Positions 1 through 20,602 of a DNA stretch of 64,000 bases are shown here, in pieces. The position numbers were made by a program, and so were the translations under genes. Source of the DNA: an uncultured delta proteobacterium (GTDB lineage: Bacteria; Desulfobacterota; Desulfobacteria; Desulfobacterales; JAHEIW01); the NCBI GenBank assembly GCA_963706575.1, contig CAVPNL010000006.1:704001-768000 (forward strand). Reading direction: 5' to 3'. Every line of letters begins with the position of its first letter. The first letter of the stretch is position 1. The notes beneath the pieces were generated by a model. It was not told where the DNA came from, did not search any database, and saw only the letters and a program-made list of their open reading frames with translations.

Positions 1-834
1 ATTGTTTTTGGCGACATACCGGGCGGCAGCTCATATATGATCGAACATCTGGCCAATTTCCCCGGACTTATGGAGGGGACTTCCGGCACCCAGTTCGGCA
101 CGATGGCATTCCAGCAGGCCCAGAAAGAAGGTACTAACTTCACATTGACCCGTTTGGAAAGCCTCAGCCATAATGAAAACCGCTTTGTCGGTGTCGATGT
201 CGATGGAAAAGAATATACGGCTCTCAGCGCCCTTGTTGCTACCGGGCGGGTGCCCAAAAGATTGGCGGTTGCCAATGCCAATATGAAAGGTGTTCATTTT
301 TGTTCAATTTGTGATGGCCCTTTATACAGAGGGAAAAATGCCACACTGGCGGTGGTCGGCAGCGATAATACCGCCGCCCAGCATGCGCTCACCCTGGCAC
401 GGACTGCCGATAAAGTTCTGCTCATCTGTCGCAGTGATACCCTTAAAATGGATGCCGTTCATAAAGACCAGATCCAGCAGCAAAACAATATTGCGTTGAT
501 GACAAACACGGAAGTATCCGGGTACAACGGCCAGGAGTTCGTCGAAAGTATTGCGGTTGCAGGTAAGGAAAAGGGGCGACAGGATCTGGCGGTTGATGGG
601 ATTTTCCTGGCAATCGGATGGCGACCCAACATATCGGCACTAAAATTGGAGGTTCAAAAAACGGCAGAGGGCTATTTGGAAACGAATGAAAAACTCATGA
701 CGTCGTTTCCCGGACTTTTCGCAGCGGGTGACATACGGGATACCGATATGTGGCAGGTGCTGACCGCCTGTGCCGACGGGGCCAGGGCGGCCAAATATGC
801 AGCCGAATATTTGGAAAAATTAACCCAAGTTTAG
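1..834 (+). CDS. trxB: Thioredoxin-disulfide reductase family FAD/NAD(P) oxidoreductase (5' end lies outside the window)
   Basis: Frame is open from base 1. Motifs: ATG, redox CSICDG, VVGSDNTA (degenerate NADPH-binding), GIFLAIG and GLFAAGD. Confidence 0.85.
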   Translation: MVFGDIPGGSSYMIEHLANFPGLMEGTSGTQFGTMAFQQAQKEGTNFTLTRLESLSHNENRFVGVDVDGKEYTALSALVATGRVPKRLAVANANMKGVHFCSICDGPLYRGKNATLAVVGSDNTAAQHALTLARTADKVLLICRSDTLKMDAVHKDQIQQQNNIALMTNTEVSGYNGQEFVESIAVAGKEKGRQDLAVDGIFLAIGWRPNISALKLEVQKTAEGYLETNEKLMTSFPGLFAAGDIRDTDMWQVLTACADGARAAKYAAEYLEKLTQV

Positions 835-1352
835 AATTTTTGTTCCCGGATGCCGGAGTAAACCGCCTTACAAATGCCCGATACGCCGCCTTGCAATCCT
901 TCCGGATTTTTAAATCCTTCTGTACCCTTTAGGCTCTCGATGTACGCGTGTGCATCAGCCAATACCTGCCAGGCCGCCTGCTTAGCGGCATCCATGTTTA
1001 TTCGGAACAACCACCCTTTTTCGTATGGATCTTCTGAAGCGAGTGAAGGGTTTTGTTTTACTTCTGGATTAAAAAAGGCAATCCCGCTAACCGGGGTTGC
1101 GATATATAAAATTTTGCCTGTAATCACAAACACCACATCCTGCCCCGCTTGAACGGACGCTTCATCCTGGACCAGCCAGTCCAGGTCATTGACGCCGCCG
1201 GCTAAAACCAGAGCGGGTTGCGTCAGGCCGAAAACAAGATCCTGATCTTGCGCTTTGGCCCATAAACCCTGTTTTGAATGATATCTTCGGTCTTCAGGGA
1301 TCTCAACGCGTTGACCTAAAAATTTTTCAATTACCGCCATTACTACCTCCAT
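831..1352 (-). CDS. Glycine cleavage H-like (lipoyl-domain) protein with a C-terminal extension
   Basis: PEDRRY...W, TPVSG and EDPYEKGWLF match the GcvH fold. The lipoyl-Lys context is atypical (VITGKI). Confidence 0.7.
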   Translation of the reverse strand: MEVVMAVIEKFLGQRVEIPEDRRYHSKQGLWAKAQDQDLVFGLTQPALVLAGGVNDLDWLVQDEASVQAGQDVVFVITGKILYIATPVSGIAFFNPEVKQNPSLASEDPYEKGWLFRINMDAAKQAAWQVLADAHAYIESLKGTEGFKNPEGLQGGVSGICKAVYSGIREQKF

Positions 1353-1520: not shown

Positions 1521-1946
1521 ATGATGCCGCGGATTGATCAGGATTGCCCCTGTACCGGAAAAAATATGAAGCATTTTGCCGCACCCTGGATTCTACTGAC
1601 ATTGGTCAATCATGAAGGTGCGCATGGCTACAAAATCAAAAAGATCATGAACCAGTTCACGCAAGATTTGGGAATTCCGTTGAACATCACCGGCCTTTAT
1701 CGGCACCTAAACGGCCTGGAGAAACGCGGCGTCCTTTACTCCAAATGGGATTCTCAGGGCAAAGGTCCGGCCAAGCGTAAATATTATTTGACCGAATCGG
1801 GTAAAGAATGTCTGCGCTACTGGATGCGCACCTTAAGCATGCAGTCGCTTCTTATCGGCAGATTTTTCGACCAGGCGAAAAAGGTTTTTCCTTCCATGCG
1901 GATGCCGACGATCCGGTTTGAAAGCCGGTCCAATTGCCTGGATTAA
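1521..1946 (+). CDS. PadR-family transcriptional regulator
   Basis: HGY, LYRHLNGLEKRG and GPAKRKYYLTESG winged-helix motifs. N-terminal DCPCTG. Confidence 0.85.
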   Translation: MMPRIDQDCPCTGKNMKHFAAPWILLTLVNHEGAHGYKIKKIMNQFTQDLGIPLNITGLYRHLNGLEKRGVLYSKWDSQGKGPAKRKYYLTESGKECLRYWMRTLSMQSLLIGRFFDQAKKVFPSMRMPTIRFESRSNCLD

Positions 1947-2006
1947 CAACACCAACGAATGTTTCAATCTAGCTTCACTCACGAATCAAAGGCAGGAGGT
2001 AACACC

Positions 2007-3152
2007 ATGTGTCCCGCTAAAGCGATTTCAGTCAACAAACCCGTAAAGCTCATCTTTGCCGGCGGTTTCTTGGGCTCCGGCAAAACAACGGCGCTGGCAT
2101 CCCTGGCAAAACGCTTGATTCAGCGCGACATGCGGGTCGGTTTCATCACCAACGATCAGAGTGAAAATCTGGTCGATACGGTTATCGTTCGACAGATGCT
2201 CACCGAGCTGGGGGTACCGGTAGAAGAAGTGGTCAAAGGCTGCTTTTGCTGCAAATTTGATGAATTGATCGAGCACGTTGAAAAAATTCTGGTCCATGAT
2301 CCCGATGTTCTCATGGGAGAACCGGTGGGCAGCTGTACCGATTTTGTGGCCGCGGTGGCCAATCCGATCAAAATTCAATACAAGGATGCCTTCCGTTTTG
2401 CGCCGTTTTCGATAATGGTGGACCCGGGCCGGGTGCGGGAACTCATGCTGCAAGAAAGCGAATCAGAATTCCCCGAGGATGTGGCCTATCTCTTCCGCAA
2501 GCAAATGGAAGAGGCAGACACCATTGTGCTCAACAAAATCGATCTTATTGCCCCGGGCGAATCGGATCGCCTGCTTTCTGCGATTGGGGAAACATTTAAA
2601 GATAAAAAATTGATGGCCGTCTCTGCCAAAGCAGGTACCGGGATGGAGGAGTGGCTTGACGACCTTCTTTCTGGACGGCCGGGCGCAAATACGGTGTTGC
2701 GGCAGATTGATTATGACCGTTATGCGCACGCGGAGGCCGTTTTGGGCTGGTTGAATGCCGCCGTATTCATGTCTGCGCCAGAATCGTTTGACGCTTCTAA
2801 TTTTGCGCGAAAATTGCTGATGGAATTGCGAGAGGCCTTTAAGCAAAGAAAGGGTGAAATTGGGCACCTGAAGATTGTTATTACCAGTGCCGGGAAATCT
2901 CTTTGGGCCAATCTGACCCATCTGGCAGCCGAGCCCAGCATCAGTGGTGAGACCCTGGATGCCTTGTCAAAGGCGGCACTCATTATCAATGCGCGGGTCA
3001 GGCTTGAACCCGAAGATTTAGAAGCGACGGTGCGTGATGTTCTTAACGCGGTTTCCGGGGGCATGGGTGTTAAATCTGAAATCGACGATCTTCAATGTTT
3101 CAGTCCGGCCTATCCTGACCCGCCGCATGTGATACGCGAATCACTTGAATAA
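2007..3152 (+). CDS. CobW/HypB/UreG (G3E)-type metallochaperone GTPase
   Basis: GFLGSGKTT, CFCC metal motif, EPVGSC and NKID. RBS AGGAGG precedes ATG 2007. Confidence 0.85.
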   Translation: MCPAKAISVNKPVKLIFAGGFLGSGKTTALASLAKRLIQRDMRVGFITNDQSENLVDTVIVRQMLTELGVPVEEVVKGCFCCKFDELIEHVEKILVHDPDVLMGEPVGSCTDFVAAVANPIKIQYKDAFRFAPFSIMVDPGRVRELMLQESESEFPEDVAYLFRKQMEEADTIVLNKIDLIAPGESDRLLSAIGETFKDKKLMAVSAKAGTGMEEWLDDLLSGRPGANTVLRQIDYDRYAHAEAVLGWLNAAVFMSAPESFDASNFARKLLMELREAFKQRKGEIGHLKIVITSAGKSLWANLTHLAAEPSISGETLDALSKAALIINARVRLEPEDLEATVRDVLNAVSGGMGVKSEIDDLQCFSPAYPDPPHVIRESLE

Positions 3153-3384: not shown

Positions 3385-3636
3385 ATGTTGCGCATAGAAG
3401 TCATCGGACTCGAGCCTCCCTGCCAAAAATGCAATGAGCTTCTCGAAAATGCCAAAAAAGCGGCTAAGGATGCCGGGGTGGATGCCGAGGTGGTTAAGCT
3501 TTGGACCCTTTCAGAAGATGTTCGCCAAAAATATGGCTTGCTACTCAGTCCGGCGCTGGTCATTGAAGGTGTCGTCGTTGCCCAGGGAAAAGTATATAAA
3601 CCGGAGCGAATCGCCGGATTACTCCAAGGTGCGTGA
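3385..3636 (+). CDS. Small redox-active disulfide (thioredoxin-fold) protein
   Basis: PPCQKC motif and YGLLLSPALVIEG...GKV. RBS GAGGTG. Confidence 0.85.
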   Translation: MLRIEVIGLEPPCQKCNELLENAKKAAKDAGVDAEVVKLWTLSEDVRQKYGLLLSPALVIEGVVVAQGKVYKPERIAGLLQGA

Positions 3637-3686
3637 AAGTAATTCAAATTGGTGCTCACCTATCGATATTTCTTAAAGATTCTGTT

Positions 3687-4556
3687 ATGAAACAACGATT
3701 GGGAATATACTTTGGAGAATTTTTCGGGACATTCCTGCTGGTTTTTTTCGGAATTTCGGCGGTGGCTGTAGCCGTCTTGTTCGATGCCATATCCAGTATC
3801 GTTCAAATTTCCATTGTCTGGGGTATCGGGGTGACCCTCGCCATTTATGCGACACGCCATTTATCATGTGCCCATTTGAATCCGGCGGTGTCTCTGGGAA
3901 TGGTATTGGCTGGACGAATGCATCCACGTCTGTTAATCCCATATTGGATTTTCCAACTATGTGGGGCGATAGCAGCCGGAGCGTGTTTACTACTTGTCTT
4001 TCATACGTCTATTTCCAGTTATGAAACAGCAAACGCTATCAGCCGAGGCACGCTTTCATCCCTAAAAACGGCGATGCTGTTCGGTGAATATTTTCCTAAT
4101 CCCGGATTCTCCTTTCCCTGGTTTGGCGTGAGCAGGGGAACCGCGATGATTGTCGAAGGATTGGGAACTTTCATTCTGGTTACAATGATATTTTTGTTGA
4201 CCGAAGGCTGCAACGTTGGACGCCCAGGTGAAGTTTTAGCACCCATTTTTATAGGGGCCACCGTATCTGCGCTTATTGCCGTTACGGCACCGCTGACTCA
4301 AACCGGAATCAATCCGGCTAGAGATTTCGGGCCTCGGTTAGTCGCCTATTTTGCCGGCTGGGACAGAATTGCAATTCCAGGCCCTCAAAACGGTTTTTTT
4401 TGGGTTTATATTTTTGCACCGCTGATCGGCGGAAGCAGTGCCGCCGGTTTTTTTCGCTTTATTCTGGCTCCTTTGATGACTGCCAAAAACCGGGAACTGG
4501 AATGCAGTTGTGACAATTGTGGTGATGCGTCGGATAATCAGTCGGGAGCAAATTGA
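3687..4556 (+). CDS. MIP family channel (aquaglyceroporin-like) with a Cys-rich tail
   Basis: EFFGTF, HLNPAVS and INPARDFGPR motifs. C-terminal ECSCDNC. Confidence 0.9.
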   Translation: MKQRLGIYFGEFFGTFLLVFFGISAVAVAVLFDAISSIVQISIVWGIGVTLAIYATRHLSCAHLNPAVSLGMVLAGRMHPRLLIPYWIFQLCGAIAAGACLLLVFHTSISSYETANAISRGTLSSLKTAMLFGEYFPNPGFSFPWFGVSRGTAMIVEGLGTFILVTMIFLLTEGCNVGRPGEVLAPIFIGATVSALIAVTAPLTQTGINPARDFGPRLVAYFAGWDRIAIPGPQNGFFWVYIFAPLIGGSSAAGFFRFILAPLMTAKNRELECSCDNCGDASDNQSGAN

Positions 4557-4890: not shown

Positions 4891-5355
4891 TTAAGACTCG
4901 AGGTTTTTTGCAGTTTTATCAAACAGATCGAGCATCCGATCAATCAGATTGATGTTCGATTTGTCAAAATTAACGATTAAATCCACTCCGGCACGATATA
5001 ATTCCCCATGATTTGGCTGTAAGCCGGCACCCCCGGCGACCAGTCGAATATCTGCACCGCCTTCGGTCTGAAGTGCCTCAGCCAGTTGAACAACCAACGA
5101 TTGATTGGTGATATCGACGATGGAGACACACATCATATGGACATCATTGTCAATTGCCAAGCGGGCGGTTTGCAAGGGCGCCTGATTGTTAGGGCCGATA
5201 TCAACGTCAAATCCGAATTCTGCCAGGGAAGCGGCTAACGATTTTGTCCAACGGTCGGACTGATCGCTTTCCAAATGAGCCAGAAGGATGCGCGGCCTTC
5301 TGCCTTCCCGCTGAGCAATTGTACTTATTCTTTTCTCTATTTGCTTGGTGTTCAT
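4891..5355 (-). CDS. Stand-alone cobalamin-binding domain protein resembling the methylmalonyl-CoA mutase C-terminus, degenerate
   Basis: EGRRPRILLA...GFDVDIGP...DNDVH...VAGG matches the MCM C-domain, but DxHxxG reads DQSDRW. Confidence 0.75.
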   Translation of the reverse strand: MNTKQIEKRISTIAQREGRRPRILLAHLESDQSDRWTKSLAASLAEFGFDVDIGPNNQAPLQTARLAIDNDVHMMCVSIVDITNQSLVVQLAEALQTEGGADIRLVAGGAGLQPNHGELYRAGVDLIVNFDKSNINLIDRMLDLFDKTAKNLES

Positions 5356-5523
5356 GTTCTCACCTGAATTTTCATGCAAGATTTAGGTTGCAATTTATTT
5401 AAAATACCTTCAGATGTCAAACGAATGCCAAGATCCGCAATCCATTCGATAGGGCCGCATTGAAAATCCATGGTGCCTATGATATCTTTCTAGAAATAAA
5501 CGAGGAGTTGAAGATTTTTTACC

Positions 5524-5595
5524 GTCATGCCCGCGAAGGCGGGCATCCATCATTTTCTGTAGGTATTTCTGGATTCCCGCCTTCGCGGGAATGAC
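5524..5595. repeat. REP-like palindrome doublet (GTCATTCCCGCG family)
   Basis: GTCATGCCCGCGAAGGCGGGCATCCA...TGGATTCCCGCCTTCGCGGGAATGAC. Related copies at 47746-47810 and 49635-50147. Confidence 0.8.
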
Positions 5596-5706
5596 AAGTA
5601 TGAAAAGAAAAAAATCCCCGACCTCTGAAATAAATAGAAGCGGCGAATTGATTGTTCGTTTTGAAACCACTTCCAGTAGGTATTGAATTGATATACAGGG
5701 ATCATT

Positions 5707-6063
5707 ATGCCATCGAAACGCAAAGCCAAAATTATCATTGAGGTGATGTACAAAGCAGATTACTGTCTGCCCTGTTTTTATATGGACGAAATGGTTCGAT
5801 CCGTGTTGCCAAACTATGCCGACCGGGTGGAATACCGTCGGGTTGACTTTTTGAAAGGGGATGGTAAAGCGCGCTTTTTGGAGCTCTCTCAGTTTCTTTT
5901 TGGTGAAGAAGGCGTTTACAAGCATTGTCGGCTTGCGCCGGTGCCCTCTCTTTGGATTAATGGAGAATTGTTCTTTGACGCGATTCCGCCCCAATTTGAA
6001 CTGGAAGAGGCCCTAGATGAGGTTCTCGCCGAACACAGAGATATTGAGAAAAAGGAAGAATAA
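5707..6063 (+). CDS. Thioredoxin-fold protein (CLPC)
   Basis: YCLPCFYM redox motif and APVPSLWINGE cis-Pro loop. Confidence 0.8.
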   Translation: MPSKRKAKIIIEVMYKADYCLPCFYMDEMVRSVLPNYADRVEYRRVDFLKGDGKARFLELSQFLFGEEGVYKHCRLAPVPSLWINGELFFDAIPPQFELEEALDEVLAEHRDIEKKEE

Positions 6064-6365
6064 TGAATTTGGAAACATCAAAAATTCATCTGGAAGTGTT
6101 TCACGAAGGTGAACACTGAATCCCCTGCGTTTACATGACCCGTGTGGTCGAAACGGTTGCGGCGGAATATGGCGACAGATTGAACTGGGAAAAAATTGTC
6201 ACCAAAGATTTAGCGGGTGCCAAGAGATACCAAAGTTTTTCAAAGTCCCTCGGCAGACCGGCGCCCGTCCCCTGCATTGTCATAGAGGGCGAGCTGGTTT
6301 TTGAAGCCACTCCCAGCACCGAGGAGCTAAAAGCCTGTATCGATCGATATTTAAAAACTTCTTAA
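6063..6365 (+). CDS. Thioredoxin-fold selenoprotein (UIPC; Sec at TGA 6117-6119), 100 aa
   Basis: ATG 6063 overlaps the upstream TAA (TAATG). Reads MNLETSKIHLEVFHEGEH-TGA-IPCVYMTRVVE..., in frame with track ORF 6135..6365. The TGA aligns with the first Cys of the paralog's CLPCFYM. Confidence 0.85.
6128..6155 (+). promoter_or_regulatory. Putative bacterial SECIS hairpin
   Basis: CGTTT-ACAT-GACC-[CGTGT]-GGTC-G-AAACG: a two-part stem with a G-containing apical loop, starting 8 nt after the in-frame TGA. Confidence 0.6.
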
Positions 6366-16488: not shown

Positions 16489-16560
16489 GCACCCAGTTTT
16501 CTTAACCCTTTTTATATGATGCTCTGTCTCTGTCGTCCGCAGAGCTCCGGCAATTTGCAA

Positions 16561-16720
16561 GGCAGGTCTTCTGGCTTTCGGATCCGTCTACTAACTGCGC
16601 CTTCCCACCTGGCTTTAACCAGACAGTGGCATGGTGCAGCATTCGTCCCCGATTACAGCGGCGGGACCACTCCCGATTTTAACGGGATTCCCTTTTAAGC
16701 CCAACAGGCACCTTGATTGC
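16561..16720 (-). ncRNA. Cobalamin riboswitch upstream of btuB
   Basis: Minus strand AGGTG...AAAAGGGAA...CCCGCCGCTGTAA...GCCACTG...GGGAAGG...AGCCAGAAGACCTGCC (B12 box). Confidence 0.93.
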
Positions 16721-16761
16721 CTAATATGTAAACTTAAAATGTTTGTCAAGGACAAACATTC

Positions 16762-19730: not shown

Positions 19731-19883
19731 CTGCACCCAGTTTGCTTGACCCTTTTTTATGTAATGCCAGTCCTCTGTCTTTCGCAGAGTGAGACCGCTG
19801 CCAAACACCCTTTTTTGCCCCATTTCATCTTGCGGCAAAAATGCGCATTTTTCAAAGGTCTCAAAACGATGGCAATCTGGCAA

Positions 19884-20068
19884 GGCAGGTCTTCTGACTC
19901 CCCCGCCCTTTTAGCAACCTTCCCATCCCGATTGGTCGAAACAGTGGCATTCGCGGCTAAAAGGGTTCTCTCTTTGTCCATAGCACACAACAAAAAGAGC
20001 AGGGTTACAGCGGCGGGACCGCTCCCGGCTTTAACGGGATTCCCTATTAAGCATACGCACCTTATTCC
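19884..20068 (-). ncRNA. Cobalamin riboswitch upstream of btuFCD
   Basis: Minus strand AGGTG...AATAGGGAA...CCCGCCGCTGTAA...GCCACTG...GGGAAGG...AGTCAGAAGACCTGCC. Confidence 0.93.
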
Positions 20069-20266
20069 CTGAAAATATCTTTTAAGGGAAAATCGGTTTC
20101 AAGTCAACAAAATTAAGTTGACAAAGGTTTGAGGTTTATTTAATTGGGTTTTAAAAATACAAATCAAAAATCTGGTGGTTCCTTTTTTTTAAATAAAACT
20201 GCTTTGAAATTGCCAGATTTTGTTCGTGAGCTCGACGCAATTCGCTTCATAAGCGGAGCATACACC

Positions 20267-20392: not shown

Positions 20393-20580
20393 GCTGTCGG
20401 GCAAAAGATGGTAATTTATAAACAGTTTTAGGGATAATAGGGAAACCGGTGTAAAACCGGTACGGACCCGCCGCTGTGTTCGGGGACAAAACCCGCAGGT
20501 TGCCACTGGCTCGTTGCCAAGCGAACCGGGAAGGTGCGGGGAGTAGGTCGATCCGAAAGTCAGAAGACCTGCCAACAGAT
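20393..20580 (+). ncRNA. Cobalamin riboswitch upstream of cobT
   Basis: AATAGGGAAACCGGTGTAAAACCGG...CCCGCCGCTGTG...GCCACTG...GGGAAGG...AGTCAGAAGACCTGCC. Confidence 0.93.
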
Positions 20581-20602
20581 TTGGGTTTGGGGAGATGGTA
20601 AA

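Follow-up and report, generated by a model that had tools for sequence, protein, structure and literature searches.

The 64,000-nucleotide stretch analysed here (the window; positions 704,001 to 768,000 of contig CAVPNL010000006.1, hereafter C6, of an uncultured delta proteobacterium) raises the question of whether a TGA within an apparent thioredoxin-like active site is a stop or a selenocysteine (Sec) codon, and what the protein read through it would do. The open reading frame under translation table 11 begins only at 6135 and misses the active site, as had been noticed in the original prediction. An ATG at 6063 overlaps the stop codon of an upstream 118-aa reading frame (TAATG at 6061-6065), and translation from it with TGA read as Sec gives a protein of 100 aa that contains FHEGEH-U-IPCVYM and ends at a TAA at 6363-6365. 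Direct reading of the sequence places AAAGGAAG at 6051-6058, upstream of this ATG, and positions 6051-6065 read AAAGGAAGAA-TAATG. By BLASTP, the protein and the upstream reading frame are 34% identical across 101 columns (E 5e-20); as originally described, U19 faces the first Cys of the YCLPC motif and the pattern APVP...I.GEL.F.A.P is common to both; the profile-profile probability of their relationship is 100%. The features of the locus are as follows.

1 to 834, plus strand: 3′ part of a thioredoxin-reductase-like gene that starts before the window (C6:703902); motif-based name
831 to 1352, minus strand: GcvH-related protein (NF045810, over cut-off)
1521 to 1946, plus strand: PadR-type regulator (below model cut-offs)
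1959 to 3152, plus strand: CobW-family GTPase
3385 to 3636, plus strand: small MTH895/ArsE-like thioredoxin (51.6 bits, below the cut-off of 62; Pfam Thioredoxin_3 over cut-off)
3633 to 4556, plus strand: MIP-family channel
4891 to 5379, minus strand: stand-alone B12-binding domain protein, divergent from the YCLPC/HUIPC pair
5707 to 6063, plus strand: YCLPC-motif paralogue, 118 aa (NF047660 74.1 bits, below the cut-off of 105; no Pfam match)
6051 to 6065, plus strand: purine-rich, RBS-like stretch and TAATG stop/start overlap (putative translational coupling)
6063 to 6365, plus strand: HUIPC-motif thioredoxin-like protein, 100 aa, with predicted Sec19-Ile-Pro-Cys22 and invariant Pro70 in APVP (NF047660 match)
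6117 to 6119, plus strand: in-frame TGA, the predicted selenocysteine codon, aligned with Cys of orthologues
6136 to 6150, plus strand: upper stem and loop of the predicted bSECIS (UGACC-CGUGU-GGUCG), within a wider hairpin at 6128-6155

The in-frame TGA and the stem-loop behind it

The original prediction had named the Sec machinery, homologues with Cys or TGA at the site, other letters at 6117-6119 and conservation upstream of the TGA among the points to check. The genome contains selA, selB and two selD genes over cut-offs, together with tRNA-Sec (selC). The selD genes themselves (C5:349796-350719 and C3:438965-439886, the latter matched in two pieces) carry one in-frame TGA each. Homologues were examined at 43 loci, comprising the window's own, 7 from a 401-genome sample of the phylum and 35 from further genome contigs. 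The motif codon is present in 42 of them, as TGA in 18 and as Cys in 24 (16 TGC and 8 TGT); the row L065 (no motif match) was left out here, and L068 and L121 (contig ends) and L080 (frameshift) were left out of later comparisons. The L080 frameshift (L080:8001-8277) belongs to a metagenome-assembled genome that has another in its methyltransferase gene (G408:C11:16078-17104), both being probably assembly errors. The TGA genes reach down to about 57% identity, the TGA always lies at the position of the catalytic Cys, and the 18 codons before it are conserved. Sequencing error is ruled out because the TGA occurs at the site in 17 other genomes. In addition, three out of four runs have assembled contigs (as distinct from raw reads) over 6117-6119 that list no alternative letter, the fourth run being without coverage, and two contigs span the site with at least 31 letters on either side.

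In a tree of 49 rows, built from 97 columns only and with the stem-constrained residues kept in, the 17 Sec rows form a single branch (98/95) among Cys rows. Thus, it is likely from this topology that Sec arose once in the HUIPC family, and the 18 TGA genes are not independent of one another. All four Cys-form genomes tested contain selA; therefore, Cys has been retained by organisms that are able to use Sec. Selenium is an upgrade in this family and not a requirement, most of the sampled relatives keeping Cys though they are capable of making selenoproteins.

A hairpin with a G-containing loop had also been predicted immediately after the TGA. The segment 6128-6155 folds as described, at -6.6 kcal/mol, with the upper stem UGACC/GGUCG and the loop CGUGU lying 21 nt after the UGA. 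In the consensus given in a recent review, a bSECIS has a loop of 3-9 nt, a stem of 4-16 bp, a G in the first two loop positions and a spacing of 16-37 nt (PMC13188914), and the geometry found here (5-nt loop with G second, 5-bp stem, 21-nt spacing) fits it. The free energy depends on the span that is folded, with -6.6 kcal/mol for 6128-6155, -8.0 for 6120-6160 and -11.3 for 6123-6165 against a bSECIS threshold of -7.5. Taken alone, the hairpin at 6128-6155 is no better than chance (z = -0.75), 291 of the 2269 TGA triplets in the window are followed by a consensus-type stem-loop of equal stability, and Rfam gave no match at the hairpin. Stability was dropped as evidence on account of the z score and the window count, and the hairpin counts as evidence because of its conservation. 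All 18 of 18 TGA genes can form a 4-bp stem at this same place, compared with only 1/24 Cys genes. Among the 17 full-length TGA genes, three of the 15 fourfold-degenerate codon sites are invariant, all three of them in the stem, and the loop base following the G is restricted to G or T. This pattern indicates that the downstream stem-loop is under selection in the TGA genes.

A genuine stop codon, damage in a pseudogene or an error of sequencing would suit both the 75-77 aa piece downstream of the TGA, which databases store as a protein, and the unexceptional stability of the hairpin, but is scarcely credible in view of the recurrence of the TGA at the catalytic Cys position in 18 genes with conserved upstream codons, the synonymous constraint in the stem, the full Sec machinery and the concordant contigs of three runs. 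From this comparative evidence, Sec is very likely inserted at the in-frame TGA of 6063-6365.

Family, fold and the upstream paralogue

The original prediction further suggested that the gene might represent an uncatalogued selenoprotein family. That idea is wrong because the protein scores 152.4 bits against NCBIfam NF047660 (cut-off 105; model positions 1-90 of 91), the family is already listed in Table 1 of a 2026 review, and RefSeq already applies the HUIPC name to Cys orthologues in Desulfofundulus. In that table, NF047660 is the HUIPC motif thioredoxin-like (seleno)protein with one Sec, credited to Haft and Tolstoy 2025, and no function is given (PMC13188914). The H-U/C-I-P-C motif of the model is present in the flagged protein. 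By profile match, the gene is a member of this catalogued family, and nothing distinguishes it at the protein level.

A thioredoxin fold with a UxxC active site, as originally proposed, agrees with the Sec machinery, the TGA and Cys orthologues and the conserved stem described above, and also with the structural model. The AlphaFold model of the HUIPC protein has a pLDDT of 93.7, and its best Foldseek matches are thioredoxins, at a TM score of about 0.66. C19, C22 and the conserved P70 show no variation across 36 aligned rows, and CxxC lies at the first helix; as modelled, the HUIPC protein has a thioredoxin fold. The closest solved sequences are archaeal thioredoxins of the MTH895/MJ0307 type (PDB 1NHO and 1FO5; E 0.0015 and 0.008), a weak similarity in which the CxxC position and the cis-Pro loop align, whereas the HUIPC protein falls far below the cut-offs of those families and its model has an extra helix at 50-63.

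The notion of a Cys/Sec tandem pair stands only in part. The two genes are paralogues, and the YCLPC gene adjoins the HUIPC gene in 25 of 35 loci, lies within about 2 kb of it in 6 and was not seen in 4. However, the true Cys counterparts of the flagged protein are the HCIPC orthologues of other genomes, and the pair makes up two of four paralogues in the cluster described below. In 26 aligned rows, the YCLPC motif is CxxC in 16, CxxS in 4 and NxxC in 6, i.e., it has decayed in 10. From these variants, the upstream gene is taken to be an old, diverged paralogue or partner, not a Cys back-up copy. Complex prediction with the Cys orthologues of both proteins from one locus (L063) scored 0.00, which is evidence neither way. 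Contigs from RNA libraries cover both genes, although such contigs cannot show transcription, strand or level. A scan for promoters and terminators gave counts near those of shuffled sequences (3 versus 2.1 and 3 versus 1.4). The intergenic stretch at 5527-5600 upstream of the pair is rich in inverted repeats (e.g., 5527-5546).

The methyltransferase cluster and two further predicted selenoproteins

Most of the gene cluster to which the pair appears to belong lies upstream of the window, at about 677-704 kb of C6; as a whole, the module is rearranged over about 33 kb. The upstream part contains an MtrH-like gene, a two-component system with V4R proteins, a B12 radical SAM protein, two MtaA/URO-D methyltransferases, a corrinoid protein, a reductive activase, a DUF2284 protein, CobW GTPases, a TSCPD protein and an SMC-type ATPase. 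The MtrH-family gene is the only one in the genome, and one of the two MtaA enzymes has an intact His-x-Cys...Cys. Two further relatives of the HUIPC protein, with CAAC and FRQ-U-VAC motifs, are also encoded there. HUIPC, YCLPC, CAAC and FRQ-U-xAC are related to one another, and the genes for all four of these thioredoxin-like proteins belong to a conserved cluster for corrinoid methyltransferases; the NF047660 cut-off of 105 is not reached by the YCLPC (74.1 bits), FRQ-U-xAC (43.5) or CAAC (31.9) proteins. In distant genomes, the order is compact: methyltransferase, CAAC, YCLPC, HUIPC, TSCPD, FRQ-U-xAC, ATPase and CobW, often with the MIP channel and ArsE-like thioredoxins. The ATPase that accompanies the thioredoxin-like genes in those genomes is here a short SMC-type protein of 329 aa (L084:18152-19141; C6:682152-683141). 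In clusters of the Bacillota type, the FRQ-type paralogue is followed by another that has diverged further (L069:9199-9800, L070-L074, L078 and L079).

In the 401-genome phylum sample, HUIPC scores over cut-off in 8 genomes, and all 8 also contain an MtaA-like gene bearing one TGA. The MtaA-like gene occurs in 11 of the same genomes, with the TGA in 9; three of the 11 have no HUIPC over cut-off, so the enzyme is not always in need of the HUIPC protein. Of 35 HUIPC loci, 17 include the MtaA-like gene; a further 15 genomes were examined for a copy at another place, and 14 had one (3 loci are outside this count). In several genomes, the YCLPC/HUIPC pair lies away from the methyltransferase. In other bacteria, the MtaA-like enzyme is fused to a C-terminal thioredoxin-like CAAC domain, and in nearly all loci this domain is either fused to the enzyme or encoded directly after it. 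A profile of the fusion C-terminal domains matches all four paralogues (3e-18, 7e-18, 9e-7 and 3e-4, HUIPC being the weakest). Very probably, the HUIPC gene belongs to a B12 methyltransferase module.

The second MtaA-like methyltransferase gene (C6:700196-701230; L085:16196-17230), about 2.8 kb before the window, has an in-frame TGA. This TGA falls within APG-x-DMP and aligns with the last Cys of MtaA 4AY7, and the His of His-x-Cys is replaced by Phe. The aligned His, Cys and Cys of 4AY7 are, we presume from the structure, its zinc ligands. For the MtaA family, the zinc ligands are described as His-Cys-Cys (PMC10418091). At 40 of 42 distinct sites the codon is TGA, including sites in Bacillota and in one Spirochaetia bin, and the hairpin sequence TGTTCC-Gnn-GGAACA is kept at 38 of the 39 complete TGA sites while the loop codon varies among Val, Leu, Ser and Ala. 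Among the best 120 database relatives, 116 are 311 aa long and 117 stop at the APG that precedes the codon; the 3 full-length ones all have Cys. The RefSeq records of cultured Desulfofundulus also have 311 aa. MtmB-family genes lie directly upstream of the Sec-type methyltransferase at L094, L122 and L123; another (L104:13116-14555) is found in a cluster with the fused Cys form of the enzyme. Those MtmB genes whose full length was read are free of internal stops.

In the FRQ-U-xAC thioredoxin-like gene, all 24 distinct sites carry TGA, and the pair that closes its stem is A-T in 14, G-C in 4, G-T in 1 and unpaired in 5. The copy here, FRQ-U-VAC (L084:17857-18159; C6 about 681.9-682.2 kb), is annotated only from a downstream ATG, and RefSeq holds the gene as a 71-aa hypothetical protein. 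For the MtaA-like and FRQ-U-xAC selenoproteins, NCBIfam 20.0 has no model over cut-off, and a literature search, with most subscription papers and the HUIPC-defining paper outside its scope, gave no description; neither has a row among the 119 families in the table of PMC13188914, and a term search of the deep-Sep main text gave nothing. The MtaA-like and FRQ-U-xAC proteins are therefore predicted selenoproteins that are apparently unlisted. A scan of 37 cluster proteins across the loci for further TGA/Cys sites gave only the HUIPC, MtaA-like and FRQ-U-xAC sites and one single match near the end of a MIP gene in L070.

Downstream of the pair, three cobalamin riboswitches (16544-16730, minus strand; 19867-20079, minus strand; 20394-20590, plus strand) precede genes for B12 uptake and synthesis. 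Elsewhere, the genome has a tRNA-Pyl (C15:118432-118505) as well as a match to the MttB family that contains an in-frame TAG (C15:58740-60147, split in two matches), and it may use both pyrrolysine and selenocysteine.

Possible function and comparison with known systems

The reading that we favour, with some reservation, is that the HUIPC protein is a dedicated thiol-disulfide reductant of the neighbouring B12 methyltransferase module. SelB would read the stem-loop so that Sec19 is inserted; Sec19 would then act as the nucleophile on an oxidised sulfur or selenium centre of a cluster protein, and Cys22 would resolve the mixed bond. The likeliest target would be either the MtaA-like selenoenzyme, at its Cys/Sec site, or the CAAC partner of that enzyme. 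Re-reduction might be performed by the thioredoxin reductase of the cluster, a gene that we take to be such from its GAGPAG and CxxC motifs and that was observed at no more than 9 of 35 loci, those of Desulfofundulus not being among them. The module would pass methyl groups via the corrinoid protein and the single MtrH-like enzyme to tetrahydrofolate, for oxidation. Its substrate can only be guessed at, a methylated sulfur or selenium compound first and methylarsenic second. Counting against the reductant role, it is HUIPC, among the four paralogues, that stands farthest from the fused domain.

The four paralogues might instead be binding or delivery proteins for a trivalent metalloid (arsenite or methylarsenite), in which case the cluster would methylate or demethylate arsenic and the HUIPC protein would be a metalloid chaperone or reductase. 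The MIP channel, the ArsE-like thioredoxins, the PadR regulator and the DUF2284 protein would all suit such a role (DUF2284 is also fused to arsenite methyltransferase selenoproteins), as would the finding that the YCLPC paralogue can lack one Cys, which fits binding better than cycling; moreover, in one genome (G169), an ArsM/AhpD-type gene with in-frame TGAs (L103:7785-8910) lies about 10 kb from HUIPC and adjoins another relative of HUIPC, the fifth, whose motif is KKGCxxC. We nevertheless consider an arsenic function unlikely. The nearest ArsM-like gene in the present genome is more than 400 kb away, a literature search of titles and abstract openings gave nothing that links such a cluster to arsenic and, to our knowledge, the MIP, ArsE-like, DUF2284 and PadR accessory families are not specific to arsenic.

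It is also tempting to regard the thioredoxin-like proteins as methyl carriers, a protein stand-in for coenzyme M, with methyl groups moving from a substrate-specific corrinoid protein via the MtaA-like selenoenzyme to the exposed Cys or Sec of its partner, and then via the other MtaA to a hub corrinoid and tetrahydrofolate. We know of no precedent for a methylated Cys in a CxxC protein, and the genome has other pterin-binding proteins, one of them beside MttB genes. The position of the CAAC domain, fused to or directly behind the enzyme, is what such a carrier would lead one to expect, but this argument bears on CAAC more than on HUIPC. An MtmB-family gene immediately precedes the enzyme in 3 loci, matches in this genome number 12 for MttB and 3 for MtmB beside a single MtrH, and the replacement of the His ligand by Phe implies that the chemistry of the MtaA-like enzyme differs. 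On the other hand, the corresponding module of Desulfofundulus kuznetsovii TPOSR occupies the place of mtaB/mtaC in strain 17T (PMC10907483), which better fits a substrate-specific first step, and a carrier role for these proteins seems quite improbable. A broader speculation, rather unlikely as a whole, is that of an undescribed anaerobe system in which an MtaA-like enzyme has Sec in place of a zinc-binding Cys and four thioredoxin-like proteins, two of them with Sec, serve as a methyl or metalloid carrier that replaces coenzyme M and feeds tetrahydrofolate. That HUIPC is a general cytoplasmic thioredoxin with an incidental neighbourhood would agree with its ordinary fold and with pairs that sit apart from the cluster, but it is very hard to reconcile with the restriction of HUIPC to 8 of 401 phylum genomes, each with an MtaA-like TGA gene, and with its homology to the enzyme's own fused domain.

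With the dedicated reductant as the preferred reading, the HUIPC family gains a testable role from its neighbourhood. The module itself is a variant of the clusters known for corrinoid methyltransferases, and its selenoenzyme is apparently unlisted. The analysis also exposes two conserved predicted selenoproteins that database records truncate, including those of cultured Desulfofundulus; because published proteomes exist for a cultured strain, read-through and substrate are directly testable. The answers would bear on the turnover of methylated sulfur, selenium, arsenic or amines by sediment sulfate reducers.

Several features are shared with MtaA of Methanosarcina (PDB 4AY7) and with the type 1 mlp clusters, a related yet distinct cluster type in which Mlp2 methylates selenide from methylcobalamin (PMC10418091). 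URO-D-fold methyltransferases, a corrinoid protein and a reductive activase are found here as well, and the components required of type 1 mlp clusters (a corrinoid protein, a Ram/RACE activase and at least two MtaA-like genes) are all present. Both are tied to selenium-using anaerobes, and one enzyme here keeps His-x-Cys...Cys. By contrast, type 1 mlp clusters as described have no MtrH-like enzyme, whereas the present cluster has one, and the four thioredoxin-like paralogues are not mentioned in PMC10418091. The His-Cys-Cys zinc site of type 1 is kept by one enzyme here, the other reading Phe-x-Cys...TGA. Desulfofundulus and Desulfotomaculum are absent from the A-M part of the species table in PMC10418091. 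The mec cassette of dichloromethane degraders (MecC, MecE and MecI; 343, 337 and 288 aa) was rejected as a match from length and architecture alone, since Ca. Dichloromethanomonas has the relative as a 451-aa fusion.

The closest described counterpart is an insert reported in 2024 for D. kuznetsovii TPOSR, D. thermosubterraneus and D. australicus, which occupies the place of the central methanol methyltransferase genes (mtaB/mtaC) of strain 17T and for which no function could be proposed; the sections on the insert make no mention of selenocysteine (PMC10907483). On methanol or lactate, the TPOSR module was barely detected, with only NHM26675.1 of the insert found (PMC10907483), and so gives no substrate clue; by gene order, NHM26675.1 is probably the CAAC protein. 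In a later data set, the truncated methyltransferase was identified with 3 peptides (q 0.0027; PMC13541210). [quoted passage not shown] The HUIPC protein of TPOSR has Cys, whereas the gene in the present genome has TGA and its module is rearranged.
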